From positions 1-55,526 of IMG/VR virus record IMGVR_UViG_3300022664_000329: 55,526 nt of DNA, one strand, 5' to 3'. Of this stretch, positions 1 through 54,476 are shown piece by piece. Source of the stretch: a virus. The notes below the pieces were generated by a model. That model had not been told where the DNA came from. It saw nothing but the letters and a program-made list of their open reading frames with translations, and searched no databases. The translations under genes were made by a program, and so were the position numbers. Each line of letters opens with the position of its first letter. The stretch's first letter is position 1.

Positions 1-127
1 TGTACTGGATCCACCAGGAATGGCTCGACTGGTACATTCTCAAGGAAGGCGAAAAAAAGGGCAAATATAAGAACGTGGACCGTGTCCGCGGCAGCGAGAC
101 GCCATCGCCGTCCAATCCCTGGCTCAC
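1..127. repeat. Terminal overlap identical to 55400-55526; the contig closes into a circle of 55,399 bp unique sequence
   Basis: Direct comparison: the first and last 127 nt (tgtactggatccaccagg...ccaatccctggctcac) are identical. A 127-nt overlap is what a k=127 de Bruijn assembler leaves on circular contigs. Confidence 0.95.
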
Positions 128-2818: not shown

Positions 2819-3778
2819 ATGACGTTCACCTGGACTTACGACGCCACCGACGGCGTTTATAAATCGCACGCTCTGTCCAAAGAGCTTTTGAAGCTGGCCG
2901 CGCTCCGGTTCCGCTTCGTTCAGTTCACCAAAAAAGTCAACGGCTACGGCCGGAGACAGGGCGAAACGGTCACGCTGCCCTACTACAAGCCCCTGCCGGA
3001 GCCGACGACCGCGCAGCTCGAAGAGCAGACCCGCATCCCCATCGACAAGCTGGAGATGGGAAAATACACCATCACCATCAAAGAATGGGGTCGCGGCGTT
3101 GAATTCACGTCTCTGGCGAAAGACCTGTCCGCGCTCGATCCGGAAGAAGGCGCGCAGCAGCGGCTCATCGAGCAGATGGACGGCTGCATGGACAGCGCCG
3201 CCGCCGACGCTTTCACGGGCGCCAATGCCAAGATTGCGTTTATTCCGACGTCGCTGACCGGCGGCGTGTTCGACACGGACGGCACGCCTTCGTCCACGGC
3301 CACCTCGCCGCTGACCAAAGACCACATGGCGTGTATCCGCGATTACATGGCCAACACGATTCACACGCCGTTTTTTGAAGGCGATCATTACGTCGGCCTC
3401 TTCTCCACCAAGGCGCTCCGCGGCCTCAAAAACGACCGCGTTCTCCAGGCCTTCAATATGTACCTCCAAAAGGGCGACATTCTGTACCGCAACGAGGTCG
3501 GCCTGGTGGAAAACATCCGCTGCGTGGAAGTCAACCACGAGCGCGCCCTTTCCGACGGCGTCGGCACCAATTCCGTGCTCGGCGAAGGCGTCGTGTTCGG
3601 CGAGGCCGCCGTCGGGCGGCTGGAAATCGAATATCCGCACCTGCGCGCGGATATGAATTACAAGTCCGATTTCGGCCGCAAAAAAGCCGTGGCCTGGTAC
3701 GGGACCGTCGCGTTTGACGTGCTGTTCCAGAGCGCCACCGACCGCGAAGCCCGGATCATCAAGATCACGAGCGCGTAG
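2819..3778 (+). CDS. Major capsid protein (319 aa)
   Basis: Position after portal and scaffold. Size and sequence character are consistent with an HK97-fold coat protein. A very strong hairpin follows the gene. Family not verified. Confidence 0.65.
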   Translation: MTFTWTYDATDGVYKSHALSKELLKLAALRFRFVQFTKKVNGYGRRQGETVTLPYYKPLPEPTTAQLEEQTRIPIDKLEMGKYTITIKEWGRGVEFTSLAKDLSALDPEEGAQQRLIEQMDGCMDSAAADAFTGANAKIAFIPTSLTGGVFDTDGTPSSTATSPLTKDHMACIRDYMANTIHTPFFEGDHYVGLFSTKALRGLKNDRVLQAFNMYLQKGDILYRNEVGLVENIRCVEVNHERALSDGVGTNSVLGEGVVFGEAAVGRLEIEYPHLRADMNYKSDFGRKKAVAWYGTVAFDVLFQSATDREARIIKITSA

Positions 3779-36211: not shown

Positions 36212-36688
36212 ATGGAAGCCATTATCGGCGGCCTGATCGGCGGCATTTTCCGCGTCATCCCGGAGTTGATCAAACTGTTTGACGCCAAAAGCGAACGCAA
36301 GCACGAACTCGACATGCAGGATAAGGCGCTGGAGTTCCAGAAGCTCACGGGATCTCAGAAGCTGAACGAGATTACCGCGCAGGGGCAAGTGGAATGGGAT
36401 AAGCGCGCGCTCGATGCGCTGAAAGGCGCGATCGAGGGCCAGGATAAACCGAGCGGCGTAGCCTGGATCGACGGCCTCAGCAAGCTGATGCGGCCGGTCA
36501 TCACGCTGCAATGGGTGATTATTTTGTATCCCGCGGTGATCGTATCGCAGATTATTTTGCTGGTCGTGAGCGGAACTCCCGCCCCCGAGGCGGTGATCCG
36601 GATTTTCGGGACGGAGGAAAAGGCCATTACGGCGGGCATTCTGAATTTCTGGTTTTTGGGCCGCGTTTTTGATCATGTGAGACGATGA
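36212..36688 (+). CDS. Holin (158 aa), GTA/3-TM holin-like
   Basis: AAGGAGG SD before the ATG at 36212. The N-terminus MEAIIGGLIGGIFRVIPELIKLFD...ERKHELDMQ and later hydrophobic segments resemble the GTA_holin_3TM pattern. ATGA overlap with the endolysin gene. Confidence 0.55.
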   Translation: MEAIIGGLIGGIFRVIPELIKLFDAKSERKHELDMQDKALEFQKLTGSQKLNEITAQGQVEWDKRALDALKGAIEGQDKPSGVAWIDGLSKLMRPVITLQWVIILYPAVIVSQIILLVVSGTPAPEAVIRIFGTEEKAITAGILNFWFLGRVFDHVRR

Positions 36689-37122
36689 GTATTCTGGATC
36701 GCGCAAAAATACTGTGCAAGCGCCTGGCCCGCGCCTTCGAAGGCCTGGCGCTTGCCGTTTATTTCTGTCCCGCGAAAAAACCGACGATCGGTTACGGGCA
36801 TGTCTGTGCGCCGGATCATCCGCCGATCACGGCGGCCCAGGCAGAGGTCTATCTCGACGTGGATGTGATGGTCGCGCTGGCCGGCGCACTGAAATACTGC
36901 CCCGGTCTGGCCAGGCATCCGGCAAAACTCGGCGCGATTGCGGACTTCTGCTTGAACCTCGGCGTCGGCAGGCTCCAGACGTCCACGCTCCGCCGGCGCA
37001 TCAACCAGGGCGACTGGGAAGCAGCGCGCCGGGAACTCGCCAGATGGGTGTATGGCGGCGGTCGCGTGCTGCCGGGACTGGTCCGCCGGCGGGCGGCCGA
37101 AGCAAAGTTGTTCGGGGAATGA
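36685..37122 (+). CDS. Endolysin, glycoside hydrolase family 24 (phage lysozyme), 145 aa
   Basis: Signature FEGLALAVYFCPAKKPTIGYGH (catalytic Glu followed by the TIGYGH block) and LNLGVG...F further on. Confidence 0.85.
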   Translation: MSILDRAKILCKRLARAFEGLALAVYFCPAKKPTIGYGHVCAPDHPPITAAQAEVYLDVDVMVALAGALKYCPGLARHPAKLGAIADFCLNLGVGRLQTSTLRRRINQGDWEAARRELARWVYGGGRVLPGLVRRRAAEAKLFGE

Positions 37123-39905: not shown

Positions 39906-40184
39906 ATGACTGAGGCATCCATTATCGGCATCAATGATGCCGGAAGCACGGACATACGCGATAAGAGCGGCCAGGCTTACCGCGTGGGCCTGCTCGTCTT
40001 TTTTGTGTCGATCAACGAGGCTGCGCCGGTCCCGGTGACGGCCTATTATCCGCTTTGCTACCAGGATAGTGTTTTTAAGATGCTGAACCGCATTACGTTC
40101 GTGCAGCCGCAAAAGCCCGGCGACACGTCGGAGACGGAGCAGATCCAGATCCGGCATAATCCAGGGCTGAAAGTACGGTCATGA
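39906..40184 (+). CDS. Hypothetical protein (92 aa)
   Basis: AAGGGAGG SD upstream. ATGA overlap with the primase gene. Confidence 0.45.
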   Translation: MTEASIIGINDAGSTDIRDKSGQAYRVGLLVFFVSINEAAPVPVTAYYPLCYQDSVFKMLNRITFVQPQKPGDTSETEQIQIRHNPGLKVRS

Positions 40185-42865
40185 CGGCTACTGCTATTTC
40201 TCTGTACTCCACTTTTTTCCATCCCGGCGAGGTGGTCGAGCTGCGCGCCATGGGGCTGCGCGGTAAAAATTCCGCCTGGTCGGGATTCGCCGGCGGCAAG
40301 GCGGGTATTGTCGCCGGATATTTCGACGACGCCGATAAGTTCCAGGCCGCCGCCCTGGCGCTCGATCGCTCCGGCGCCCGCGGCGTCTATTTCACGGCCA
40401 ATCCCGTGCACCCCGCGCTCCTGGCCCGCGCGGCCAACCGACTCACCTGCCCGTCCGACGGCGAAATCACGAACGATCTCCATACGGCCTGCCTGCGCTG
40501 GTTCCTGGTCGACCTGGACGCGCCCATGCTGGACGGCTCCCGCCGCCCGAAGGGCATTTCGGCGTCGAACGAGGAAATGCAGTTGTGCATGGCCCGCGCG
40601 GAAGAGGTTGCCCGTTACCTGGAAGGCGAGCACGGTTTCGCGCGCGCGCTCCGCGGCATGAGCGGCAACGGGTATCATCTGAATTACCGCCTGCCGGATT
40701 TGCCCAACGACGACGAGCACCGATTCCTGATCCGGGACGCGATGGCGGCGCTGGCGGAGAAATTCGGCCCCGTCACGATCGATGTTTCGGTGGTCAACCC
40801 GTCGCGGATATGGAAATTCTACGGCACAACCGCGCGCAAGGGGGACTCGACCGCGGACCGGCCGCACCGCGTGGCGTATCTGTACCCGAATCAACCTGCT
40901 GTACTGGATGATATACCCAGCACGGATATCGAGACGTTTCGAAAATTCGCGTCGCTTACCGCCGCAGCGGAATCAGCGACGCATGCCGCCGGCTCCGCCC
41001 GCCAGGACCAACCTCCTCCTGCGCAGGCGTCGCAGTCGGCGGCACCTTCTCCTGTCGCCAAAACCACACGGATGAAACCCAATGAACTGGGTCCGCTCGA
41101 CATGGAAAAATATCTGTCCCATTTCGGCGTTAAACACTCGGTCAAGGAAATCACTCATTCGAAGTACGGGCCGGCGACGGCGTACGTGCTCAATCAATGT
41201 CTGTTTAACGCCGATCACACGGACGGCGAAGCGGCCATTATTGTTCCCCATAATGGTGCGTTCAAGTATCAATGTTTTCATGCGTCGTGCAAGGGGAAGA
41301 CCTGGAAGGACGCTAAATCGACAATTTCGGGCGGAAAAAATCTGGCGGAATTCTGCCGCGGCTACGATCCCGCCTGGACACCGCCCAAGGACACCGGCAC
41401 GGGCATGATGGCGGCGCTGCCGACGCCGATGACGAATGCGACGGCGCTCCAAAACGGTCTGGGCTCGCCTACCCCTGTGCCCCAGCCGACGGAAGTGGAC
41501 CCGACGGAATTCTACGAGCGCCGCGGGAAACGTCCGGCGTTCGTGCCTCTGTATCTGGCGAAATATCTTGCCGCGTATCTGCATCCGATTTGCTCCACTA
41601 ACGGCGTGTTTTATCATTATTCGAACGGACTCTGGAAGGAGTTTCCCAAGACGCAGATCGCGCAGATCTGCGTACACGCGATGCGCGAACACATCCAGGC
41701 GGCCTGGATCGACAATACGTTTAAAATCCTCGCCGGGCTCTGCAATCGGGAAGAGGCGGAATGGCCGGATAACCCCCACGTTGTCAATGTCAAAAACTGC
41801 ATGCTGGATATGGTCACGCGCGAAGTGTTCCCGCACGATCCAAAATGGGGCAGCCGCACGCAGCTGCCGGTGGAGTATCACCCGGAGTTGGACTGGTCGC
41901 CCCGCTTTATTCAATTTCTGGAGGATATTTTCCCCGAAGACGCCAAAAGCGAAAAAAAGTTTATGCTCATGCAGTTCTTCGGGTACTGCCTGCTGCGCGA
42001 CGCCCGATATCAGAAGGCGTTATTTCTCTACGGCTCGGGCGCGAACGGCAAATCCACGGTCCTGGATGTGCTGTGCGCGATGGTGGGCGAGGAAAACACG
42101 TCGTCGCTCACGCTCACGGACCTGGCCAAGCAATTCCGCGCGCATTTTCTCCAAAATAAGCTGGTCAATATTTCAACAGAAACGGAAACCCGCGATCCGC
42201 TGACGACGTCGACGTTCAAGGCGGTCGTGGACGGCTCGCCGATTACCGCTGAACGGAAATACGGAGAGGCGTATCAGTACCGGTCTTTCGCAAAGTGGAT
42301 TGTGGCGATGAATGACCCGCCGGTGATTCCCGACAAATCTCACGGTTTCGGCCGCCGTGTGATTGTTCTCGATTTCAACCGCCGGTTCGAGGAACACGAG
42401 ATTAAGGACCGGATGGCGGAGTACCTCATCGAGGAGCTGTCCGGCGTGTTCAACTGGGCGCTCGACGGCCTCAAAATGCTCCTGGCCAACAAGGGGTTTA
42501 AGCTGGGGTCGCTGGTGCGCCGAGACACGGACAAGCTGATGGAACGGATGAATCCGCTGATTTCGTTCGTCAAAGATTGCTGCGAGATCAATGACAACGC
42601 CGATCTGGACTGGTACGAGCACGTCAAACCCATGTGGCTCGCCTACACGGAATGGTGCACGGAAGGCCACAACCGCGCGATGGGCCGGAATAATTTCTAC
42701 GAGCAACTGCAATCGACGTTTTTAAGAATCAAGAAGGACCGAAAGACGATGAAGGATGGAAGTCAACCCTATGTTTTAAAGGGCATCCGGCTGACGGACG
42801 CCGGCCGCGAATACGCGGAACGCGGGCAACAACGCCTGGACCGCGGCCGCGAGAAAAAATACTGA
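40181..42865 (+). CDS. Bifunctional primase-polymerase (AEP-type) / D5-P4 family helicase (894 aa)
   Basis: N-terminal prim-pol-like region (VYFTANP...WFLVDLDAP...MSGNGYHLNYRL...NPSRIWKFYGT). Zn-binding KYQCFHASCKGKTW. D5_N-type middle region. Walker A FLYGSGANGKST with downstream VAMNDPP. C-terminal FVKDCCE...YTEWC module. Confidence 0.85.
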   Translation: MTATAISLYSTFFHPGEVVELRAMGLRGKNSAWSGFAGGKAGIVAGYFDDADKFQAAALALDRSGARGVYFTANPVHPALLARAANRLTCPSDGEITNDLHTACLRWFLVDLDAPMLDGSRRPKGISASNEEMQLCMARAEEVARYLEGEHGFARALRGMSGNGYHLNYRLPDLPNDDEHRFLIRDAMAALAEKFGPVTIDVSVVNPSRIWKFYGTTARKGDSTADRPHRVAYLYPNQPAVLDDIPSTDIETFRKFASLTAAAESATHAAGSARQDQPPPAQASQSAAPSPVAKTTRMKPNELGPLDMEKYLSHFGVKHSVKEITHSKYGPATAYVLNQCLFNADHTDGEAAIIVPHNGAFKYQCFHASCKGKTWKDAKSTISGGKNLAEFCRGYDPAWTPPKDTGTGMMAALPTPMTNATALQNGLGSPTPVPQPTEVDPTEFYERRGKRPAFVPLYLAKYLAAYLHPICSTNGVFYHYSNGLWKEFPKTQIAQICVHAMREHIQAAWIDNTFKILAGLCNREEAEWPDNPHVVNVKNCMLDMVTREVFPHDPKWGSRTQLPVEYHPELDWSPRFIQFLEDIFPEDAKSEKKFMLMQFFGYCLLRDARYQKALFLYGSGANGKSTVLDVLCAMVGEENTSSLTLTDLAKQFRAHFLQNKLVNISTETETRDPLTTSTFKAVVDGSPITAERKYGEAYQYRSFAKWIVAMNDPPVIPDKSHGFGRRVIVLDFNRRFEEHEIKDRMAEYLIEELSGVFNWALDGLKMLLANKGFKLGSLVRRDTDKLMERMNPLISFVKDCCEINDNADLDWYEHVKPMWLAYTEWCTEGHNRAMGRNNFYEQLQSTFLRIKKDRKTMKDGSQPYVLKGIRLTDAGREYAERGQQRLDRGREKKY

Positions 42866-42880
42866 TCCGATCGAGAGGAA

Positions 42881-43468
42881 ATGATGAGCAAAAAAAGTGA
42901 AGTTAAAAACGGTTCGTTCGTGCAGTTTCTCAATGACTGCTGCATATTAGTCAGTAGAGATCAAAAGCATTCTTTTTACCGTGAAATATCCGCAGCTTAT
43001 TTCTTATGGTGTGACACACATTCCGTCACAAGCCGCCTATGTCCTGCCATGCTCCGGGCCAAAATGGAAGAATATCCTTATCTGCGCCTGAATGAGACGG
43101 GATGGAAATATGCGGATCGCCTGCTGCACCTTTCCCGTATCAAAGTATTCGGGCATCACTATCAGCATATCCAGGACGACCAACTGACAATGGCCGCAGG
43201 CACGCCCGGACAGATTTGCTCACGACTGCACTGGATCAAAACCGACCCAACCGCACCCCGAACACGACAGGAAGAGGCGCTGCTGCATGAGATCTTCGAG
43301 GCGCTGCGCTATCATCTGAATCTGGAAGAAGTCATCAGCCACCAGGTCATGTCGTCACTTAGTGAAGGTTTGTTTGCCGTAATGAAGGACAATCCAGCAT
43401 ACTTTACTATCCGCATCCCGCCGTTGCCCGCGCCGACCGAACTGGGCGGAAGCGATATACCGTTTTGA
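42881..43468 (+). CDS. Hypothetical protein (195 aa) whose N-terminus resembles the C-terminal module of the primase-helicase
   Basis: SFVQFLNDCCILVSRDQKHSFYREISAAYFLWCDTH compared with ISFVKDCCEINDNADLDWYEHVKPMWLAYTEWCTEGH. Lower GC than the flanks. Confidence 0.45.
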   Translation: MMSKKSEVKNGSFVQFLNDCCILVSRDQKHSFYREISAAYFLWCDTHSVTSRLCPAMLRAKMEEYPYLRLNETGWKYADRLLHLSRIKVFGHHYQHIQDDQLTMAAGTPGQICSRLHWIKTDPTAPRTRQEEALLHEIFEALRYHLNLEEVISHQVMSSLSEGLFAVMKDNPAYFTIRIPPLPAPTELGGSDIPF

Positions 43469-43642
43469 AAGGAGAGGAAGATGATGAAGGATGGAAGTCA
43501 TCCCCATGTTTTCAAAAAGCGGCCGCTCAATATGGACCGGTCGCGTTAAAAAAAAGCTGATGCCGCTCAGTTGCGTGCACGATTATCCGCGATTATAGGC
43601 AGTGGCAAGGCCTGTAAAATACTGAAACCAAAGGAGATAAAA

Positions 43643-44422
43643 ATGAAAAATCTGAAAATCGAAAGAAAATGGCCGGATGATGTCATGATGATTCCGGTGG
43701 CCAACGGGATATTTGACGCAGAAAATAGGACCTTCACAGAATGTCAGCATGACCCGGAAACGGATTATTATATCCCTGTAAGCTACAAATTATCCGCCGG
43801 TGCCATCATGGTGGATGACTGGATCACTTTTCTGGATGAGGTTTTGCCTCACCAGCAACACCAGGACCTGCTGCAAAAGATGTTCGGGTATTGCCTGTTA
43901 CGCGACAATCGTTTTTCCCGCGCTTTTTATCTGTGCGGACCCGGAAACGGGAAATCGACCATCATCAATGTATTAATTCACATACTCGGCCATGAGAATG
44001 TTACGGCACTCAACACACAGCAACTACTACATAGTTCGTTTCGCCGGGCGATGCTACATAATCGGCTGGTTAATGTTTACGGTCAGGACGAGCTGTTCAT
44101 TACCACCACAGGTAAACCTATGGGAACCCTCGGAATCTTCAAGGCAATGGTGCAAGGTGATATCTGTACGGCTAAACACAAATATGGCAACACCTTCCAG
44201 TTTGTTCCCTTTGCAAAATGGGTAGGGAGCGGTTCCGAGATCCCGCGCATGATGGAAAATACAAGCATCGGGAGAAGAATGCAGATGATCGCTTTTAACG
44301 AGATTATCCCGCCGGAAAAAATACAGATGAATTACCACCACGTCCTGCTTCGGTCCGCGCCCGCGATTCTTTCCTGGGCGCTCGATGGTTTAGGCATGTT
44401 GATTGTAGATCAAGGATTTTAA
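43643..44422 (+). CDS. Diverged D5/P4-type helicase ATPase-domain paralogue without a primase domain (259 aa)
   Basis: AAAGGAG SD before the ATG at 43643. MFGYCLLRDNRFSRAFYLCGPGNGKSTIINVL parallels the intact gene. Lower GC. Confidence 0.6.
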   Translation: MKNLKIERKWPDDVMMIPVANGIFDAENRTFTECQHDPETDYYIPVSYKLSAGAIMVDDWITFLDEVLPHQQHQDLLQKMFGYCLLRDNRFSRAFYLCGPGNGKSTIINVLIHILGHENVTALNTQQLLHSSFRRAMLHNRLVNVYGQDELFITTTGKPMGTLGIFKAMVQGDICTAKHKYGNTFQFVPFAKWVGSGSEIPRMMENTSIGRRMQMIAFNEIIPPEKIQMNYHHVLLRSAPAILSWALDGLGMLIVDQGF

Positions 44423-44454
44423 TAAAATAATTTCTGAAAAGGAGAATAATAATC

Positions 44455-45366
44455 ATGTCCGAAGTCACGAACTCGAATGCCCGCGATCCGATTATCCACA
44501 TTATTCACCATGATGACCCCGACGGAATCTGCGCCGCCGCCATTGTTTTATTGGCTCTGAACAGCCACCCTTCCGGAAATTCGCCGCGGTTCATGTTATA
44601 TCCGGTCAACTATAACCACCCGGTCGACGTTTCCCGGATGGCCGATGGCGATAGGGTGGTGATTGTCGATTTTTCGTACCCGCCTGCGGAAATGGCGAAG
44701 ATTGAAGCGATCATCATGCCGCAAAGTATTTACTGGATTGATCACCACAAGACGGCAGAAGCCTATGGTTATCAGTACAAGGGCCTGCGCGATTTTTCCG
44801 ACAAAGGGCAGTCAGGCTGCGAGCTGGCCTGGGCGTATTTTTTCCCGAACAGACCGTTTCCGCTCGCGGTGCGACTCATCGGCGATTATGATTCCTGGCG
44901 GCTTTCGCTGACCGAATCCAAATGCTTCCACGAGGGGATCAAGATGCTCTGCCCTACTCCCAGGGCTGAGTTGTGGCATGAATTGCTGTACAAGAATTCC
45001 TCCGGCGCCCGAAGCTATGTCCAAAATGTCGGTTCCTACGCCATGCAGTACCGCGACGCCTACTGCGCCCGGATGCGTCAGTCGCACGGGTATCCGACCA
45101 CGCTGGCCGGTCATCCGGCGTACGCGCTCAATGTGTACGGTTTCGGCTCGCAGGCTTTCGGCGATCTGTTTACCTGTTTTCCTCTCGTCATTGCCTATGT
45201 GCACGACGGCCGGCGCTTCACGTGCTCGCTCTATTCGGAGACGGTCGACGTAGGGGCTATCGCTAAAAAACTGGGCGGCGGCGGACATAAAGGTGCGGCG
45301 GGCTTTGTCTGCGATGTGCTGCCGTTCAAACCCGAAGCTCTGTTTGCAGCAGGAGTCACAGAATGA
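44455..45366 (+). CDS. DHH/DHHA1-family phosphoesterase (303 aa)
   Basis: Motifs HHDDPDG, VVIVDFS, WIDHHKT and GGGGHKGAAGF. Confidence 0.8.
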   Translation: MSEVTNSNARDPIIHIIHHDDPDGICAAAIVLLALNSHPSGNSPRFMLYPVNYNHPVDVSRMADGDRVVIVDFSYPPAEMAKIEAIIMPQSIYWIDHHKTAEAYGYQYKGLRDFSDKGQSGCELAWAYFFPNRPFPLAVRLIGDYDSWRLSLTESKCFHEGIKMLCPTPRAELWHELLYKNSSGARSYVQNVGSYAMQYRDAYCARMRQSHGYPTTLAGHPAYALNVYGFGSQAFGDLFTCFPLVIAYVHDGRRFTCSLYSETVDVGAIAKKLGGGGHKGAAGFVCDVLPFKPEALFAAGVTE

Positions 45367-45947
45367 GCGAGAATAAAGGATTCGACTGGAAAACATTGAT
45401 TGCAGGCAATGTTACGAATACCCCACATCTGATGTATGGCACGTTCCTGTTATTTCTGGCCGCCTGCCGAGATGCAAAAACGGCAATCATCCTCGGAGAT
45501 GATTACGTCATCATGGATGCCCGTTCGTACACGGATCTGTGCGCTAAGGTGGACCAGACCCAGAGCCTGCTGGAAGCACAACGCGCCCAGGCGGTACCAA
45601 CTCCTGATCTTTCCTTCATCAGGAGGAACGCTGGGCCAGGAAAAGGCGTCCGCCCCTTTGATTATCTCATCGACTTGTCTGCCCGCGGGCAGGAGTGGGT
45701 GCGCTTTTGCGAGCGCGTGCTCGATCACATTGAAGGTTATACCGTCCCGCAATATGGCGACCTGCCGAATGATCAGATTTCGTCCTGGTCGGTCGATGAC
45801 GTTATGCAGGCGATCCGGAAACGCACGCACCGCCACGGCAAAAACAGCCGCGGACCCGACGAGGATCTGCGCGATTGCCTGAAAATAGCTCACGAGGCGT
45901 GTATCGCGTATTTCAAGATTGTGCAGCAACAAGGGAGGAAAAAATAA
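45363..45947 (+). CDS. Hypothetical protein (194 aa)
   Basis: ATGA overlap with the DHH gene. The C-terminal half (IRKRTHRHGKNSRGPDEDLRDCLKIAHEACIAY) is reminiscent of DUF3310-like phage proteins. Unverified. Confidence 0.45.
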   Translation: MSENKGFDWKTLIAGNVTNTPHLMYGTFLLFLAACRDAKTAIILGDDYVIMDARSYTDLCAKVDQTQSLLEAQRAQAVPTPDLSFIRRNAGPGKGVRPFDYLIDLSARGQEWVRFCERVLDHIEGYTVPQYGDLPNDQISSWSVDDVMQAIRKRTHRHGKNSRGPDEDLRDCLKIAHEACIAYFKIVQQQGRKK

Positions 45948-45949
45948 TC

Positions 45950-46141
45950 ATGTCAAAAACAAGGTCGGCGCGTAAGCAGAACCGCAGGGACTTGATTTTC
46001 GCCGGAAAAAAGACTTTTTTTACTGGACAGAGAACCAGCGCGGCCCGGCAGGAAAAAAATCGCATCATGTCCGAGCAAGGGCTGAAAACCGGAAAGCAGT
46101 ACCGCCGATGGGTGAAAGATCACCGGAGGATAATCACATGA
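45950..46141 (+). CDS. Small basic protein (63 aa)
   Basis: GGGAGG SD before the ATG at 45950. Arg/Lys-rich. Confidence 0.4.
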   Translation: MSKTRSARKQNRRDLIFAGKKTFFTGQRTSAARQEKNRIMSEQGLKTGKQYRRWVKDHRRIIT

Positions 46142-46343
46142 ATATTGAACAGGCCTATGCGCTCATCTGGGCGGAACTGGTGGCCGCGGAAAAAAAGCAT
46201 CCCGGATGGCCGACCGATCTGATTCACGCTGACGGCATTGCTCCAAGATGGGCGAAAACGTGGACGGGTATATTATCGGCCTAAAACGTTACGCACTGGA
46301 AAACGGTATTGATATTAGTGGCAGCATCTACCTGAGTCGATGA
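46138..46343 (+). pseudogene. Disrupted MazG-like (all-alpha NTP pyrophosphohydrolase) gene: GC-rich N-terminal piece (46138-46284, frame 1) and AT-richer C-terminal piece (46248-46343, frame 3)
   Basis: The N-terminal piece MNIEQAYALIWAELVAAEKKHPGWPTDLIHA matches the usual start of phage MazG/DUF550-like proteins but lacks the EExxE block. The second piece, GYIIGLKRYALENGIDISGSIYLSR, resembles the MazG C-terminal helix and ends at attC1. Base composition changes near 46240. Confidence 0.4.
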
Positions 46344-46344
46344 T

Positions 46345-46406
46345 GCCCAACGCCGAGGTAAGCCGGAGGTGCGTAGCACCGATCGGCTTGAGCGCCATTG
46401 TTGGGC
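46345..46406 (+). repeat. attC1 (62 bp): R'' GCCCAAC ... R' GTTGGGC
   Basis: GCCCAACgccgaggtAAGCCGgaGGTGCgtaGCACCgatCGGCTTgagcgccattGTTGGGC. Inner stems AAGCCG/CGGCTT and GGTGC/GCACC. Confidence 0.7.
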
Positions 46407-46443
46407 GCTTGTGTAAAACAAATTAACAAGAAAGGATATAATA

Positions 46444-46614
46444 ATGCAACGAATAGAAAAATTAGATTCGTGGGATTTTCCAGATACAAGACCTTTGCGC
46501 GACGGATATGATGTTAAAACTGTTCCTGATATGAGCGCGGCAAATATTTTAGTTCTTATGGATAAGATAAACGAAATCATAGATACGGTAAACCAGTTAT
46601 TGCCGCCGGGTTAA
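46444..46614 (+). CDS. Cassette ORF (56 aa), unknown function
   Basis: aaaggat SD-like sequence upstream. The stop lies 3 nt before the GCCCAAC inverse core. Confidence 0.45.
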   Translation: MQRIEKLDSWDFPDTRPLRDGYDVKTVPDMSAANILVLMDKINEIIDTVNQLLPPG

Positions 46615-46617
46615 TAA

Positions 46618-46728
46618 GCCCAACTGAAAAACTATTTTGCGTAGCAATTATTAAAAACTGTTCATCGTACCAACGCCGGAGCTGAGGCGGAGCGCGTAAG
46701 CGCGATCGGCTCTAGCGTTTTGTTAAGT
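46618..46728 (+). repeat. attC2 (111 bp if R'' is GCCCAAC at 46618; a second AAC box, TACCAAC, lies at 46668): R' GTTAAGT
   Basis: ...taCCAACgccggagctGAGGCGgaGCGCgtaaGCGCgatCGGCTCtagcgttttGTTAAGT. Confidence 0.6.
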
Positions 46729-46759
46729 GGTTTTTAATTTTTATTAAACGGAGGGCAGG

Positions 46760-47041
46760 ATGACAAAAGAAGAAGCAATAAGTCTGTATGACTCTAAATT
46801 CTGGGAAGCAATGACGTATGCAGAAAGGGCAAAATTCCAGATGTTTGAACCTCTGCTTTGTATGCCTTTTGATATTTTCCATGAAGCAGTAGAAAAAACA
46901 CTTGGTCGCCCGGTATGGACTCATGAGTTTGTGGGAGATAATCTTAAAAAAGAATTGCTTGGTCAATCTCCTGCTCCTTCAATGGAAGATATTATTAATA
47001 TGATACCGGAAGACAAGCGCATGATTGTTGTTCACACTTAA
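46760..47041 (+). CDS. Cassette ORF (93 aa), unknown function
   Basis: GGAGGG SD upstream. The TAA stop lies inside the inverse core ACTTAAC. Confidence 0.6.
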   Translation: MTKEEAISLYDSKFWEAMTYAERAKFQMFEPLLCMPFDIFHEAVEKTLGRPVWTHEFVGDNLKKELLGQSPAPSMEDIINMIPEDKRMIVVHT

Positions 47042-47091
47042 CGCAAAAATCACCCGGAGCGCAGCGATCGGGTGGATTGCCCTTGTTGGGC
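47036..47091 (+). repeat. attC3 (56 bp): R'' ACTTAAC ... R' GTTGGGC
   Basis: ACTTAACgcaaaaatCACCCGgagcgcagcgatCGGGTGgattgcccttGTTGGGC. Confidence 0.7.
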
Positions 47092-47122
47092 TTTCTATGT
47101 CTGCGCAGAAAGTTTATAAGCA

Positions 47123-47305
47123 ATGCATACCATATCTACTGGTGATCCATCTACCCTCGGAACATATAAAAAGCTTGCTACTATTTTCGGAGAAAAGGCC
47201 GTCAAATTTATACAGGATAAAATTGACGAATCCCCTGACGGAGAAAACGAAGAAGTGATTGCAGATGAACGGCAGATGATGTTTTTGCTCATGTCGATGA
47301 TGTAA
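47123..47305 (+). CDS. Cassette ORF (60 aa, acidic), unknown function
   Basis: Ends 8 nt before attC4. No clear SD. Confidence 0.35.
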   Translation: MHTISTGDPSTLGTYKKLATIFGEKAVKFIQDKIDESPDGENEEVIADERQMMFLLMSMM

Positions 47306-47313
47306 TTTTGTAT

Positions 47314-47380
47314 GCCCAACGCCGGAGATAAGCCGGAGCGGCACATAGTGCCGCGATCAGCTTGAGCGACTTTGTTATCT
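47314..47380 (+). repeat. attC4 (67 bp): R'' GCCCAAC ... R' GTTATCT
   Basis: GCCCAACgccggagatAAGCCGgagcgGCACatagTGCCgcgatCaGCTTgagcgactttGTTATCT. Confidence 0.65.
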
Positions 47381-47598
47381 GATTTTTTAATTTAGTGGCG
47401 AGAGGATTATCAAAGCAAATGCCAGGAATAAAGGAAACACTGATCCTCAATCTTTATTCCCGCCGACAGAAAGGGGATATGTCGGGACGCTTTAAATAGC
47501 CCCGTATGCTGGATAAATATCTGGCGCTGACAGGCATAAACTCCATATGGTGGAGAGTGCGCAAAACATGTCGTCGGAGCGAGTAACCGATTATTAAC

Positions 47599-47654
47599 AG
47601 ATAACGCGCGAATCAGCCGGAGCGTAGCGATCGGCTGTATGGGCCTTGTTAGGC
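47599..47654 (+). repeat. attC5 (56 bp): R'' AGATAAC ... R' GTTAGGC
   Basis: AGATAACgcgcgaatCAGCCGgagcgtagcgatCGGCTGtatgggccttGTTAGGC. Confidence 0.7.
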
Positions 47655-47680
47655 CCAATATTAAAAAGGAGAAAAAATAA

Positions 47681-47842
47681 ATGGAAAATAAAACATCTTC
47701 ACTTTCACCGACACATAAATATTTTTTTAGTACGGGACAACTACCCCGGAAACCATTACCCGGTGAACAAACATATGAATCATTTTGGCAACGAGTCAAG
47801 GCAATCCATTTTAAGAGAAAGTTTAAGCGAACTGTAGCCTAA
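47681..47842 (+). CDS. Cassette ORF (53 aa, basic), unknown function
   Basis: AGGAG SD 9 nt upstream. The TAA stop lies inside the inverse core GCCTAAC. Preferred over the TTG-initiated track ORF 47646-47837. Confidence 0.45.
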   Translation: MENKTSSLSPTHKYFFSTGQLPRKPLPGEQTYESFWQRVKAIHFKRKFKRTVA

Positions 47843-47843
47843 C
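47837..47843 (+). repeat. Orphan inverse core GCCTAAC (truncated attC6), right edge of the array
   Basis: Exact reverse complement of the attC5 core GTTAGGC. The conserved GCCGGAGCG...GCGATCGGC interior does not follow it. Confidence 0.5.
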
Positions 47844-47856
47844 AATTAAGCAGCAA

Positions 47857-48180
47857 ATGAATGATATGACTCCCAATGAACTAGAAACCCTGGCCGCCCT
47901 GGTAGCAAAAGAACTGGCTCCGCTGCTGCAGAAAAAGCCGTGGCTTACTCTGCGTGAGGCCGCGTCGGAGTATCATATCGGAGAGCATCGACTCATTCAC
48001 CTGGCCAAGACAGAAAAGAAAATAAAAGGGTTCCAGGATCCGGACAGTAAACGCAACGATTGGTTGTTTGAACGTAAATCGTTGGATCGATACCGTGACG
48101 ACCAGGCTCCTGCAGTCATCACGCCCCGTGAAAAAGCGCTTGCAATAATCTCAGGCCGGCGTATAGGAAAAGTGGCATGA
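47857..48180 (+). CDS. xis: Excisionase / HTH_17-like DNA-binding protein (107 aa)
   Basis: PWLTLREAASEYHIGEHRLIHLAKTEKKIKGF...WLFERKSLDRY. ATGA overlap with the integrase gene. Confidence 0.6.
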   Translation: MNDMTPNELETLAALVAKELAPLLQKKPWLTLREAASEYHIGEHRLIHLAKTEKKIKGFQDPDSKRNDWLFERKSLDRYRDDQAPAVITPREKALAIISGRRIGKVA

Positions 48181-49184
48181 GAATCTTTCAGAAACGTGGC
48201 TGGTATCACGTGGAGATTGATCGCAATCACTCCAGGGCACTCGGTACGCGCGATCCGGCCGAGGCCGCTAGAATTGTCGATGAGATCATTAAAGCGGAAG
48301 CCCGACAAAAAGTTTCCGAGATCGAATCCGCGTCCCGCATTAAACTCAAAAACTTCGCAGAAAAATATATCGAATACCGGGAAGGGCTAAAGGACCTGTC
48401 CGAAGAAACCATCAAAAAAGACAAATTATCTCTAAAACTCCTGGCCGGTGCAATCGGAGACGACACGTTAATGGCCGCGATCGTCCGAAAGAAATCAAAA
48501 AAGCTGGAAGATTTTAAGAAAATTGCACTTGCCGCCGGCGCATCGCCAATCACGATTAACGGCTACCTGCGTCATCTAAAAACAGCATTTAAGTGGGGCA
48601 AAGAAGACGAGGATCTGATCGATCGATTACCGAAGATCGTCATGTACAAGCGGATAAAAAAAGACGAAGAGGCTATGCTGGACCGCATCCTGATGCCCGA
48701 GGAAATTAAAAAGGCCCTGGCTAAAGCAGATGAATTCAACCCTAAGTTTGGATTGTATGTCCTAACATTGCTCTGGACAGGAGGCCGCCGCCGTGAGGCA
48801 CTGGGCCTGGAATATCAGCGCATGGATTTCACGCATAATCTAATCACACTGATCGGGAAAACCGGTAAACGCATCATTCCCATGCTGGCCCCGGTAAAAG
48901 AGGCACACAAGCCGTTTAAGAAGGACATCGGCCGAGTTTTTCCAGACTGGCATCCTGACACCGTTTCTCACTGGCTAAAAAAGGTATTGCGCGATTGCGG
49001 GATAGAAGACCATCGGCTGCATGATTTACGCCACACCTGCGCCACCTACCTACTCAAGAATGGTGTTGAATTGGCAGTTGTACAACGCATCATGGGCCAC
49101 GCCCAAATGTCGACGACACAGATTTATGCCAAGGTCCTACCAGATATCATGGCCAGCCAGATGGAAAAATTGAATTTTGATTGA
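48177..49184 (+). CDS. int: Tyrosine recombinase, phage integrase (335 aa)
   Basis: Catalytic signature TGGRRREAL ... HDLRHTCATYLL ... GHAQMSTTQIYAKV. Followed by an attP-like site. Confidence 0.9.
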   Translation: MRIFQKRGWYHVEIDRNHSRALGTRDPAEAARIVDEIIKAEARQKVSEIESASRIKLKNFAEKYIEYREGLKDLSEETIKKDKLSLKLLAGAIGDDTLMAAIVRKKSKKLEDFKKIALAAGASPITINGYLRHLKTAFKWGKEDEDLIDRLPKIVMYKRIKKDEEAMLDRILMPEEIKKALAKADEFNPKFGLYVLTLLWTGGRRREALGLEYQRMDFTHNLITLIGKTGKRIIPMLAPVKEAHKPFKKDIGRVFPDWHPDTVSHWLKKVLRDCGIEDHRLHDLRHTCATYLLKNGVELAVVQRIMGHAQMSTTQIYAKVLPDIMASQMEKLNFD

Positions 49185-49192
49185 CATCCCTC

Positions 49193-49213
49193 TGCGGTAC
49201 ATCTGCGGTACAT
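49193..49213 (+). repeat. Arm-type repeat TGCGGTACATCTGCGGTACAT (left arm of attP)
   Basis: Identical 21-mer at 49379-49399. Each is a tandem TGCGGTACA dimer. Confidence 0.7.
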
Positions 49214-49252
49214 CGTTCGTAAGTAGTTATTATCATTCATATGGGCAATCAA

Positions 49253-49297
49253 CTTTTAATCCGTTGGCCGCGGGTTCAATCCCCGCACGGCCCACCA
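49253..49297 (+). other. attP core: 3' 45 nt of a tRNA-Lys(UUU) gene (anticodon loop to CCA); not a complete tRNA
   Basis: CTTTTAA-TCCGT-TGGCC-GCGGGTTCAATCCCCGC-ACGGCCC-A-CCA has the anticodon loop, variable loop, T-arm and acceptor 3' strand. The upstream sequence cannot supply the matching 5' acceptor or anticodon stem. Confidence 0.65.
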
Positions 49298-49306
49298 AGA
49301 AAAACA

Positions 49307-49342
49307 AGGGTTTTCGGTGTTTACAGCCGAAAACCCTTTTTT
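49307..49342 (+). terminator. Rho-independent terminator
   Basis: AAGGGTTTTCGGtgtttacagCCGAAAACCCTTtttt. Perfect 12-bp stem plus a U-run. Confidence 0.6.
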
Positions 49343-49378
49343 CATACCTCCTCAAATCTCCTCATTTTGGGCCAGTTT

Positions 49379-49399
49379 TGCGGTACATCTGCGGTACAT
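49379..49399 (+). repeat. Arm-type repeat TGCGGTACATCTGCGGTACAT (right arm of attP)
   Basis: Identical to 49193-49213. Confidence 0.7.
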
Positions 49400-49441
49400 T
49401 TTACTAGCGATATACTAGTTATTCCGTTGAATAATGCTTGA

Positions 49442-50026
49442 TTAATGGGCTTTTAGGCCGTCAAACCACCGGCTAATTCTAGCCCCCAGACATACTCGAC
49501 TTCCCCCCTTGGCCGATATTTCCTCGACGACATCTGATGACGCCACACTGATGACGATGCACGGGGTCAGCGTCTTGCCGCGATATGCCCGCCCAGCGAT
49601 GATGGATGTGATGGCTATACCCTCCGGGATGGAGACGTGCTCTGCGATGTACCTATCCATCACCCTATCGGCAGCAGCCGGAGCGACCGGCGATCCGTCA
49701 AACATACCAGAGCCGTACTCCCCGATGTAATATGTAGGCCACGGGATATGGACTGATAGGACGCCGTTTATGGGTATCAATTTAGTGTTCAGTGAATATT
49801 TTTCGGACCCATCCACGGTAATTCCTCTTGGGCGGCCGCCAAGCTTTCCGTTTGCCTTGCTTGATGCGGCTTTCTTCTCTGTTTTTTTTTGCCCCATGAG
49901 ATAGGCCGCATAGTCCACGAATTTTCCTCCACAGTTTCCGTGACTCATGCCCTGTGTTGCGAGACTAAAACCGACATCCAGATCGTCCTGGATTGCCCCA
50001 CACTTGTTGCATATTGATTTTCCCAT
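49442..50026 (-). CDS. Hypothetical protein (194 aa from the ATG at 50026) with an N-terminal Cys-rich region; att-adjacent moron
   Basis: AAGGAGGAG SD on the minus strand before MGKSICNKCG...HGNCGG. Contains a GGRPRG motif. One of three minus-strand genes. Confidence 0.5.
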   Translation of the reverse strand: MGKSICNKCGAIQDDLDVGFSLATQGMSHGNCGGKFVDYAAYLMGQKKTEKKAASSKANGKLGGRPRGITVDGSEKYSLNTKLIPINGVLSVHIPWPTYYIGEYGSGMFDGSPVAPAAADRVMDRYIAEHVSIPEGIAITSIIAGRAYRGKTLTPCIVISVASSDVVEEISAKGGSRVCLGARISRWFDGLKAH

Positions 50027-50237
50027 GATTTCTCCTCCTTCTTTATTTTTTGTTAAGCATAATATAAAGCTAGCGCTAGGTTTTGTCAAGCATTATTTTA
50101 ATTATTTTTTATGTGTAATGTTGTTATTAAGTATTTGGATGATGTTAGATGTTTTTCAGGAAGGCCTAGAGCGTACCTTTTTTCCGCCTCCCCCCTCCCC
50201 TTTTTCTTTTTTGTCCCCTTTTTCATCTTCCAAAAAC

Positions 50238-52383: not shown

Positions 52384-53022
52384 ATGACAGGACAGATGGC
52401 GACCAATAAAATCGTACGCAAAAAACTGGAGAAGACCGTCGAGGATCTGATTGCCGCGGGAATCTCCACGTCATCCGCCATCGCCGACGCGCTCAAGGCT
52501 CAGGGCCATTCCGTATCCCAGCCGACTGTTTCGCGCTATCTGCGGACCCTGGAGGAGCAGCGCCGGGACGAGACGATAAAACTCGTTTCCGACCACGTCC
52601 AAAAGAATGTCCCGGCCGATCTCACCGCCCTGGAGACGATGGAGGCGCAATGCCTGGACTGGGCTGGCGAAAAACAGGACGCCTTTGCGCATCGCCTGGC
52701 CGCCAAACACATTCAGGAAGCAGCGCAAGAATGGTCCGACGCCATCTTGCAACTGACCGACGCAGACCCGAAGGCGCGCGCCGAAGCCCTGGAAGTCATC
52801 GCCGGCCAATGCCTGTTGTGGATCGCCGACGATCTCAAGTTGCAGTCCGCCCGGATCGCGGCCATGAAGCAGGCGGCGGCGATCATTCAACTCAAGCTCC
52901 ACTTTGCCCTCGGCGATAAATCGGAGGGCAATATCTATTTTCTCGACGCAGAACGCGGCGACCGGATCGAACGCGACGACCAAACCGGCCGCGTCATGGT
53001 ATTTCCGGGAGGAAAAGACTGA
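52384..53022 (+). CDS. terS: Terminase small subunit (212 aa)
   Basis: Directly upstream of terL and overlapping it (TGATG). N-terminal HTH-like segment SSAIADALKAQGHSVSQPTVSRYLRTL. Confidence 0.55.
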   Translation: MTGQMATNKIVRKKLEKTVEDLIAAGISTSSAIADALKAQGHSVSQPTVSRYLRTLEEQRRDETIKLVSDHVQKNVPADLTALETMEAQCLDWAGEKQDAFAHRLAAKHIQEAAQEWSDAILQLTDADPKARAEALEVIAGQCLLWIADDLKLQSARIAAMKQAAAIIQLKLHFALGDKSEGNIYFLDAERGDRIERDDQTGRVMVFPGGKD

Positions 53023-54476
53023 TGGCGGGCGATATTGTTTTCCAGCTTTCGCAGACGCAAAGCGCCTTCGTTCATTCTCCGGCCCACATCAATCACCTGA
53101 CCGGGCCGATGGGCGAAGGAAAAACCCACTGCGCCGTGGCCCGGATGATCGCCCACGCCAACCGCTGCAAACTTTCCGTGCCGCTGCGCGCCGCGATTAT
53201 CCGCGACACGCACGTCAACATCAAGACCAGCACGGCCGTCAGCATCAAGGAAATCCTGGGCGACCGGGCGATTTTCAAGGACGACTACAAAAAACTGTTC
53301 ATCAAGGCGCGCTATCCGATCGAAGCCGACCTGTTCGGCATCGACGACGAAGCCTCCATCTCAAAACTCCAGGGTCCCCAATACGGGACCATCTGGCTGG
53401 AGGAGCCGGCGCCGATTTACGAAAAGGCCAACGCCGGACTGCCCTATGAAGTTTTCACTCTCTCCATTGCACGCTGCGGGCGCCAGTCCGGCAGCATTCC
53501 CAACCTGCAAATCACACAAAACCCGGCCGACGAGGAGCACTGGACATCCCAGTTAATCGACGAGCCCGAAGAATTCATGATCGCGGCCGACGGCACCGTC
53601 ATCACCAAAAAGACGTTTCACATCCGCCGCGGCGAAAACACCTTTCTTTCGGCCGTGCAGCGGGCCATGAACATGGCCGCGTTCAAGAACGATCCGGCCA
53701 AATACGCGCGCTATGTGGAAGGGAAAACCGCTTCCGTCATCCGCGGCAAGGCCGTGACGCCGAATTATAACGCCGATCTGCACTATGCGCAGCAGATCCA
53801 GCCCTTCTTTCCGAAGCTGGAGGCATTCCGCTGGTGGGACGGCTACCAGCATCCCTCCTGCGTCATCGCGCAGTGGAACCCGTTCGGCCAGTTGGTGATT
53901 CACGACGTGCTCACGATGGACGGCCACGGGGTGGTAGAGCTGATCACCGAAAAGCTCAACCCGCTTTTAAAAACCCCCAAATATCGCGACAAGGATGCCC
54001 CCTGGCGCGATATCGGCGACCCGAGCATGCAGACCCCCGACCAAAGCACCAGCTCCACCACAGCGGCCCGGCGCGTAGCGCAGCTGCTGTCGACACGGTT
54101 CGAGCCGGGGCCGACGCGCTGGCAACCCCGGATTCAGCCGCTCAACCACGCTTTGACCCGCCTGGTCGGCAGCGGGCGGCCGCTGATTCTGATTTCCGCC
54201 TCCGCGGCCGCGGCGCACCGCGCGCTCAAGGGCGGCTGGCACTATAAAATCGACAATAACGGGCATCAGATGGGCGATCTGCCGGTTAAAAACGAGCACG
54301 ACCACGTCGGCATGGCGATGGCCTACGGGACGGCGGTTGTGCTGCCGTACAACGCCCGCGAGCTCATCAATCCGGCCAAGAAAGGCCCGCGCGCCGACGC
54401 CGCCCTGCGCATGTCCCGGGCTCTGTCCTACGGAGCCGGCGCGCCCGCGAGCGGCGCCCGAAGGAGTTTTATATGA
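53022..54476 (+). CDS. terL: Terminase large subunit (484 aa)
   Basis: Walker A LTGPMGEGKTH, Walker B-like GTIWLEEPAP, and a C-terminal nuclease-type region. Followed by the portal gene. Confidence 0.85.
   Translation: MAGDIVFQLSQTQSAFVHSPAHINHLTGPMGEGKTHCAVARMIAHANRCKLSVPLRAAIIRDTHVNIKTSTAVSIKEILGDRAIFKDDYKKLFIKARYPIEADLFGIDDEASISKLQGPQYGTIWLEEPAPIYEKANAGLPYEVFTLSIARCGRQSGSIPNLQITQNPADEEHWTSQLIDEPEEFMIAADGTVITKKTFHIRRGENTFLSAVQRAMNMAAFKNDPAKYARYVEGKTASVIRGKAVTPNYNADLHYAQQIQPFFPKLEAFRWWDGYQHPSCVIAQWNPFGQLVIHDVLTMDGHGVVELITEKLNPLLKTPKYRDKDAPWRDIGDPSMQTPDQSTSSTTAARRVAQLLSTRFEPGPTRWQPRIQPLNHALTRLVGSGRPLILISASAAAAHRALKGGWHYKIDNNGHQMGDLPVKNEHDHVGMAMAYGTAVVLPYNARELINPAKKGPRADAALRMSRALSYGAGAPASGARRSFI

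Follow-up and report, generated by a model that had tools for sequence, protein, structure and literature searches.

How does a temperate phage that encodes no integron integrase (IntI) come to carry an array of integron gene cassettes, and are those cassettes still being exchanged? The question is raised by IMG/VR virus record IMGVR_UViG_3300022664_000329, which was analysed over its whole length of 55,526 nucleotides (nt; 'the window'), and in which a preliminary description, made from the letters alone, had picked out a row of imperfect palindromes and short genes as a set of cassettes separated by attC recombination sites. We conclude, with a probability of roughly 0.8, that positions 46345-47849 form an integron-type array of five cassettes closed by a truncated attI-type junction, on which the IntI of the bacterial host most likely acts in trans. 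Coordinates are collected in Table 1; related contigs and genome loci are referred to by L numbers.

A covariance model built from five sites in the window (E1 to E5) and run over both strands of its 55.5 kb recovers just those five, at 66-77 bits, with the next-best match at 12.6 bits. All of the elements first listed were found, together with a lone core, GCCTAAC, at 47837-47843. A test for an integrase-less array is the presence of at least two attC sites with no IntI nearby; here five sites lie within 1.3 kb, and there is no IntI in 55.5 kb. As in the inverted cores of attC sites generally, AAC and GTT are invariant in all five, and the sites, 56-67 nt long, differ in their apical hairpin, in keeping with the variable terminal structure of attC sites and a length of about 57-141 nt. 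The stop codons said to lie within inverse cores are indeed there, in ACTTAAC (47039-47041) and GCCTAAC (47840-47842). The second element was only partly well placed in the preliminary description, which began it at 46618: the GCCCAAC at that position is a real cassette boundary, but the conserved body starts with TACCAAC at 46668. The longer, 111-nt version folds no better than shuffled sequences (z-scores of +0.49 and -0.71) and was replaced by a 61-nt site and a 50-nt remnant. This 50-nt segment (46624-46673) is absent in L168 and carried by L169 and L166, whilst in L170 the same TGAAAAACTATTTTGCGTAGC runs on into an attC right arm; this comparison suggests the left arm of an attC (or cassette) that has decayed.

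If these palindromes bound mobile units, then the two ends of each unit should betray it, and the claim that had been made for the junctions is borne out at five of five in the window: GTTGGGC (46400) is complementary to GCCCAAC (46618), GTTAAGT (46722) to ACTTAAC (47036), GTTGGGC (47085) to GCCCAAC (47314), GTTATCT (47374) to AGATAAC (47599) and GTTAGGC (47648) to GCCTAAC (47837). Five consecutive matches would arise by chance with a probability of about 2e-8. The same boundary rule holds in the wider family, where 86 of 123 neighbouring site pairs in related arrays match at all four of four variable core positions, as against 2.9% when shuffled; the two cores belonging to one and the same site are complementary at chance level only.

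The recombining bottom strand of an attC site has an R box, an unpaired spacer, an L box and two extrahelical bases a 6-bp stem apart, the distal one being a conserved T (PMC5027507). In a structure alignment of 150 members of the family, whose median length is 56 nt, 96.5% of cells are paired, and the AAC...GTT core pairs are 98.9% paired. The helix formed by the L box and the 6-bp stem shows both-sided changes in seven of nine pairs, so that the covariation first claimed for the stem is confirmed at family level. Within the L box, a 3-bp helix at columns 14-16/56-58, AU is exchanged for GC 33 times and for CG 29 times, and two of its three pairs covary. As the model that built the alignment did not include the L box, this is an independent check. 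R box and L box are separated by unpaired stretches of 5-7 nt (attC spacers being of about 5-6 nt per arm), a bulged base stands at column 55 between L box and stem (T in 83 members, G in 47, C in 16), and exactly six pairs from this bulge all 150 members have a T, at column 48. Every part of the R/L-box architecture that the preliminary description had proposed to look for in the folds is present. Because both extrahelical bases sit on the 3' arm of the window + strand, it is this strand that corresponds to the attC bottom strand. When the two cores of a cassette are rejoined, as in its circular form, the resulting sites have a closed 7-bp R box with z from -2.1 to -3.3; the hybrid sites as found in the array fold more weakly. 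A first, hand-drawn pairing of R box to stem (model R1) was replaced by the L-box pairing, which covaries.

Could the elements be nothing more than ordinary intergenic hairpins, that is, terminators or repetitive extragenic palindrome (REP)-like repeats? They do lie between genes and form G+C-rich hairpins, and attC sites are themselves thought to terminate transcription weakly (PMC9892861). Such hairpins would, however, leave unexplained the boundary rule, the conserved extrahelical bases, the linkage to IntI with its conserved attI motif, and the AA|C breakpoints around identical cassettes (the last two described below), and nothing relevant was found in Rfam, either at the gathering threshold over the whole window or at E<=10 over 45800-50200; we regard this explanation as extremely improbable.

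The conserved interior of the sites provided a pattern that was scanned against viral contigs and genomes, matching first 8 and later about 25 viral contigs, together with at least 120 genome loci, nearly all of them in metagenome-assembled genomes (MAGs) of Syntrophales, Smithella, Syntrophaceae or other 'Deltaproteobacteria'. The covariance model finds arrays of sites in these genome loci, and eight of them encode an IntI beside the array, scoring 411-435 bits against the NCBI model TIGR02249 (cut-off 265 bits). In every one of these, intI has the array on its 5' side, and the model strand is directed at intI in 7/7 loci with placeable sites; in L114, L041 and L072 the array stops about 125-175 nt before the intI open reading frame (ORF), ending in a lone core that complements the last attC. 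Since the arrays adjoin IntI in these genomes, the family can be identified as the sites of the chromosomal integrons of a Syntrophales lineage. On the evidence of these sequences, bacteria of Syntrophales or Smithella type are probably the hosts of the phage.

No intI lies in cis in the window, where the sole tyrosine recombinase is the phage integrase (48177-49184), and the preliminary description was right on both points. Might this enzyme move cassettes as well as integrate the phage? It adjoins the attI-type junction on the side and in the orientation that intI takes in chromosomal integrons, and it is Xer-like, Xer proteins being able to act on folded single strands (PMC5027507). Its match to TIGR02249 is, however, of 53.8 bits only, far from the cut-off of 265, and is confined to the last 60 residues; it is without the IntI-specific insertion of about 25 residues that is present in 4/4 aligned Syntrophales IntI; and it has an attP of its own, with putative arm-type repeats and a tRNA 3' fragment. 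Moreover, no tyrosine recombinase was found in the DNA examined of the other viral loci that bear arrays, in which the attI-like end is followed by DnaB, AAA_24 or RadC-like genes. A double role for the phage recombinase is thus quite improbable in our estimation, and a host IntI acting in trans is favoured because the phage encodes none.

The end of the array nearest to this integrase carries a recognisable motif. RYYYAAC|AATTAATATAC closes arrays in at least 27 genome loci and 9 viral loci, with no attC beyond it in 36 of 41 cases, and it lies directly upstream of intI in L041, L099, L114 and L116; from its position we take it to be the attI-type junction of the family. The window reads GCCTAAC|AATTAA and then xis, keeping 6 of the 11 conserved nt of the motif. 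In L160, the same phage in another sample, the corresponding sequence is GCCCAAC|AATTAATATACGCAG, with the full AATTAATATAC motif and about 145 nt more before the common TTAAGCAGC, such that the window looks as if a phage of the L160 type had lost the sequence between two TTAA repeats. Read along the - strand, a recombinase gene pointing away is followed by the attI-type junction, the cassettes and, at the far end, a complete attC (E1), which is standard integron geometry; the departures from it are that the recombinase is not IntI and that the genes are reversed. The statement that both ends are truncated therefore needs qualification, given that the right end is an attI-type junction, whilst on the left the array does abut an ORF (46138-46284) matching only the middle of a 230-residue phage family. 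It is plausible that this ORF is a fragment of a longer phage gene, truncated at the left end of the array. The stretch 46248-46350 may be either part of the phage backbone or what is left, at the 3' end, of a further cassette that has lost its attC; in L169, homology with the window begins at the AAC of the E1 core, to the left of which the sequence is entirely different.

Two further observations concern the attI-type motif. On its other strand (e.g. L019 at 2561, L041, L114) it reads GTATATTAATTG|TT, with a -10-like box, TATATT or TATTAAT, facing the array, and it may double as a cassette promoter in chromosomal integrons. Many genome loci (L019, L020, L033, L121, L138 and others) have arrays that end in the motif with no intI within 2-6 kb, the attI-type end of such integrase-less chromosomal loci being followed by housekeeping genes such as those for DXP synthase (L033) or an AMP-binding enzyme (L138); integrase-less platforms seem to be common in these bacteria too.

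Relatives of the individual cassettes, found by exact-protein look-ups, tell us how the array changes (the look-up for ORF 47681-47842 returned no record). Copies of cassette a stand in other contexts in L168, L169 and L170, identical or 99.6-100% identical, and in L168 the cassette stops exactly at GCCCAAC, after which comes another attC. Cassette b, with its DUF7736 gene, recurs in L161 and L162 (both 100% identical) and in L163 (99.4% identical), each time with different neighbours; its right breakpoint is ACTTAA|C in all three. On the left, L161 and L002, which holds an 88%-identical relative, break directly after the AAC at 46668-46674, L002 keeping the same upstream attC. From these breakpoints it follows that the attC upstream of a gene is the one that travels with it. 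Two contigs from a single run (SRR28789609) bear on the array as a whole: L166 has the same backbone (99.8% identical over 44134-46695) and, after TACCAA|C, an attC and an ORF that differ from those of the window, and L160 is 100% identical over 47846-49281, with a different sequence at the position of cassette e. Between the stretches of backbone shared with these two contigs, the cassettes differ from the window's. Samples SRR6476074, SRR28789609 and SRR25909814 all contain this phage. We regard these comparisons as direct evidence, at sequence level, of recent site-specific cassette turnover in this phage lineage.

L160 shows one further peculiarity, in that its nt 1-30 are the reverse complement of window 47163-47192, inside ORF 47123-47305, and join GCCCAAC|AATTAATATAC at a position that reads GGAA|C in the window; a secondary AAC may have served for a rearrangement, or the join may be an overlap artefact of the de Bruijn graph. 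As regards DUF7736, genes of this family are also found in the early or replication regions of other phages, in L004-L007 without strong attC sites and in L008/L009 with only weak attC matches near (19-21 bits), such that, by these sequences, the family has cassette members as well as ordinary phage genes.

The same contigs bear on whether the A+T-rich block is an assembly chimera. The block was correctly described as A+T-richer, with a G+C content of 0.39-0.47 over 46300-47950 against 0.50-0.60 immediately upstream, the drop starting near 46240; this shift in composition, the capacity of repeats to mislead a short-read assembler and the fact that several of the related contigs are short de Bruijn-graph contigs all speak for a chimera. 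The repeats, though, are just about 60 nt long, L164 is 100% identical to 42242-46650 (from the replication genes through E1 and cassette a) and L159 to 47062-49281 (from E3 through int), both possibly from the window's own sample, and L166 and L167 span the left junction in two further samples. A chimera is, accordingly, very improbable.

The array departs from the usual pattern in the direction of its genes. In canonical cassettes the sense strand of the gene is the attC top strand and the attC lies 3' of it, an orientation that the preliminary description had taken for granted; the DUF7736 gene and the other ORFs of the window instead have as their sense strand the one that bears the features of a bottom strand, and each gene travels with the attC upstream of it. 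That the window + strand is the canonical bottom strand is indicated by the agreement of three independent observations, namely the extrahelical bases, the position of the arrays relative to intI and the strand of the chromosomal genes. Across the family, cassette genes in viral contigs lie on the model (bottom) strand in 45 cases and opposite in 5, as against 23 and 200, respectively, in genome loci (Fisher p = 1e-28). The chromosomal genes, on the strand opposite the model and directed away from intI, are canonical in polarity. IntI recombination cannot flip the polarity of a gene within its cassette, and for this reason the phage cassettes constitute a separate population.

The cargo differs too. 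Pfam matches bear out that the genes are real in both groups: chromosomal cassettes encode protein kinase, TIR, radical SAM, HNH, AbiJ and RNase T proteins, and viral ones two N6/N4 methylases, MT-A70, Mom, radical SAM, a sigma-70 region 4 protein and a DruA-like protein; judged by these domains, phage cargo looks counter-defence-like and chromosomal cargo defence-like. The latter matches recent work in which chromosomal integrons are stores of defence genes (bioRxiv 10.1101/2024.07.02.601686). Some of the exceptions among the genome loci are themselves phage-derived in appearance, for instance L025, with a lambda NinG-like gene, and L029, with a C5 methylase. L025 (PLLX01000044.1, labelled as a Bacteroidales MAG) holds six cassettes of phage polarity with Syntrophales-type attC sites and also an RNA ligase, and is probably a phage contig binned into the wrong genome; several tiny contigs of the 'Bacteroidetes UR.bin43' MAG likewise carry Syntrophales-type attC sites.

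Polarity bears, too, on the idea that the array is a passive piece of chromosomal integron, captured once by illegitimate recombination or faulty excision and without an independent existence in phages. Host chromosomal integrons do use the same attC family, the block is more A+T-rich than the backbone, its left edge adjoins a truncated phage gene, and such captures have been described for Vibrio phages by Qi et al. (PMC9892861). Simple borrowing from a chromosomal array does not, however, fit the inverted polarity; nor does passive capture account for a cargo of phage type (DUF7736 being common in phage early regions), for the approximately 25 viral contigs with similar arrays, several with an attI-like end of their own, or for the same backbone with other cassettes in other samples. 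In addition, xis and int separate the array from attP, by which a specialised-transduction-like capture beside attP was ruled out. We judge passive capture improbable. As to the inverted polarity itself, it might reflect common descent, a silencing effect on cassettes that pass from one pool to the other, or a bottom strand that folds more readily (as non-template strand or as lagging-strand template).

Preferring, then, an array served by the host enzyme, we can sketch how it would work, the folding and replication steps being modelled on the established integron mechanism (PMC5027507). The mobile unit would be the cassette, with its bounds at AA|C. The attC strand with the two extrahelical bases, which in the window is the + strand and hence the coding strand, would fold to a hairpin; IntI would cut this hairpin between A and C of the 5' core and exchange it with another attC or with an attI-type site, and replication would finish the exchange. 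The enzyme would be the chromosomal IntI of the host, supplied in trans while the phage is in the cell. Cassettes would be read by phage transcription towards xis-int, with a gene-to-attC polarity opposite to that of chromosomal cassettes.

Several points weigh against this reading. Some cores are off the RYYYAAC/GTTRRRY consensus (TACCAAC, AGATAAC/GTTATCT and ACTTAAC/GTTAAGT), and the attI-type motif is reduced to 6 nt, so that insertion there may be lost in this genome. Some breakpoints in short-read contigs are not those predicted by a single IntI crossover: the identity of L163 with the window starts mid-attC (46702), with a different left arm, perhaps through homologous exchange between attC sites that resemble each other or through a switch in assembly, and the breakpoint of L160 is 2-3 nt from the core. 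No host genome with this prophage was found, the host being deduced only from the distribution of the attC family, and many of the viral and genome loci may share ancestry, such that the counts given here are not counts of independent events.

Contrary to the supposition that the arrangement was undescribed, attC arrays in phages are already published. Qi et al. 2023 (PMC9892861) found 3 complete integrons, one In0 and 17 clusters of attC sites lacking integron integrases (CALINs) in the genomes of phages, among them temperate ones, demonstrated recombination of phage attC sites by IntI1 and reported methyltransferase cassettes. Their CALINs resemble the present array in having attC-bounded cassettes in a phage genome without IntI, methyltransferase-type cargo is also found in the viral arrays related to the window's, and reliance on a bacterial IntI was proposed there and demonstrated with IntI1. 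They differ in that the 17 CALINs were found by software in isolated phages, with gene polarity relative to the attC strand not reported, whereas in the present phage family the attC sites are tied to a specific host lineage with IntI, attI-type ends and cassette turnover are seen, and polarity is systematically inverted. What appears to be new here is the inverted polarity together with the attI-type end. Of these the inverted gene polarity appears to be a new point in itself; a literature search of incomplete coverage turned up nothing on inverted cassette polarity in phages, on attI-like sites on IntI-less phages or on Syntrophales integrons, which is absence of evidence only.

Insertion by IntI at non-att genomic sites (bioRxiv 10.1101/2022.09.11.507474) would offer a route by which a first cassette could enter a replicon without an integron platform; as the phage arrays mostly end in a conserved attI-like motif, a random secondary site would explain them poorly. 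With sedentary chromosomal integrons (the Vibrio cholerae superintegron; L028, L041, L043, L072, L099, L114) the array shares a homogeneous attC family, the layout of R and L boxes, spacer and extrahelical bases, the boundary rule, an attI-type junction and crossover at AA|C; it differs in having no intI in cis and just 5 cassettes, in that its genes occupy the attC bottom strand and point towards the attI side, not away from it, and in its cargo of small phage genes, where chromosomal cassettes hold kinase, TIR, AbiJ, HNH and exonuclease genes. Phages also have 'moron' regions by int/xis, in which small, A+T-richer, variable genes lie between early genes and integration module. Unlike these, the variability seen here has a defined site-specific mechanism with recognisable recombination sites.

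The genome in which all of this sits is that of a tailed, temperate phage with an integration module, and the array occupies an accessory region that has replication genes on one side and xis-int-attP on the other. The excisionase-like helix-turn-helix (HTH) gene next to the junction belongs to this integration module and not to the cassette system. In the attP-like region, the tRNA fragment ends in CCA and is accompanied by a terminator-like hairpin; judged by eye from its CTTTTAA loop it is of tRNA-Lys, and ARAGORN finds no complete tRNA there. The two GCGGTACATCTGCGGTACAT copies are about 190 nt apart and may be arm-type integrase sites, and the contigs L159 and L160 both end at window 49281, within the tRNA fragment. 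Because the large terminase lies beyond it, the attP-like site is internal to the phage genome, which makes the window the permuted genome of a free phage, as opposed to the edge of a prophage. Other features of the genome are a second, shorter DUF5906 gene at 43571-44422 (a 283-aa (amino-acid) protein, separate from the D5-type primase), followed by a DHH/DHHA1 phosphoesterase-like gene at 44455-45366; a single ORF of 6095 aa in the structural region (16269-34556, +), which is very large for a 55-kb genome; and an antisense ORF of 129 aa (47410-47799, -) that crosses attC E5 and is probably spurious, although the + strand of cassette d offers no convincing gene.

The array with 12 kb around it has no BLAST match among GenBank phages and PLSDB plasmids, and no closer relatives were obtained with the protein 45363-45947 (viral contigs) or the integrase (metagenome contigs). 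A related phage, L001/L156, has an integrase 54% identical to that of the window and lacks the array; only xis and int are common to the two, and for this reason it does not allow an empty-site comparison.

Table 1. Features of the window (55,526 nt) referred to in the text
Feature	Positions	Strand	Basis or remark
Portal	75-1289		
Major capsid protein	2819-3778		
Endolysin	36685-37122		
D5-type primase with DUF5906 domain	40181-42865		
Left-flank ORF	46138-46284	+	PHROG phrog_31484, E=1.9e-5; residues 3-35 aligned with 114-146 of its 230 profile positions
31-aa ORF plus GCCCAA	46248-46350	+	ORF list; no attC to left even with filters off
attC E1, cores GCCCAAC / GTTGGGC	46345-46406	+	76.8 bits; DNA fold with closed 7-bp R box, z=-3.3
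Cassette a: E1 body and 56-aa ORF (46444-46614), end GCCCAA	46351-46623	+	Copies in L168, L169, L170
50-nt remnant between two AAC cores	46624-46673	+	Comparison with L166, L168, L169, L170
attC E2, cores TACCAAC / GTTAAGT	46668-46728	+	66.2 bits
Cassette b: E2 body and DUF7736 gene (46760-47041), end ACTTAA, stop in core	46674-47041	+	Pfam PF24875, 52 bits
attC E3, cores ACTTAAC / GTTGGGC	47036-47091	+	68.5 bits
Cassette c: E3 body and 60-aa ORF (47123-47305), end GCCCAA	47042-47319	+	Reconstituted site: closed R box, z=-2.8
attC E4, cores GCCCAAC / GTTATCT, longer terminal hairpin	47314-47380	+	67.4 bits
Cassette d: E4 body, no convincing gene; best + ORF 34 aa (47395-47499), end AGATAA	47320-47604	+	
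attC E5, cores AGATAAC / GTTAGGC	47599-47654	+	66.4 bits
Cassette e: E5 body and 53-aa ORF (47681-47842), end GCCTAA, stop in core; nearest attI-like junction	47605-47842	+	
Lone core GCCTAAC and AATTAA, taken as truncated attI-type junction	47837-47849	+	Motif comparison
Excisionase-like HTH gene	47857-48180	+	Weak HTH_17 match; 40% identical homologue precedes integrase in L001
Phage tyrosine integrase	48177-49184	+	PF00589 77 bits; phrog_1 180 bits
attP-like region: tRNA 3' fragment (~49240-49300) between two GCGGTACATCTGCGGTACAT copies	49193-49399	+	Sequence reading
Large terminase	53022-54476		

It is mainly as devices of bacteria that integrons are known, at first in antibiotic resistance and lately as stores of anti-phage defence. 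The present array and its relatives indicate that phages of one bacterial lineage swap small accessory genes via integron sites, probably with the enzyme of the host, several of the swapped genes being counter-defence-like. We tentatively put forward a wider picture, to which we would give somewhat less than even odds: phages of Syntrophales-type bacteria would keep integrase-less platforms of their own (attI-like site and array) and a phage-specific pool of cassettes of opposite polarity, having the host's IntI and site family in common with the bacterium, with the phage shuffling counter-defence genes (methylases, Mom and others) and the host shuffling defence genes, and polarity would serve as a functional partition between the two. 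If this is true, a cassette crossing from one pool to the other would land antisense to local transcription and hence be silent. The reversal of polarity may also bear on how cassettes come to be formed.

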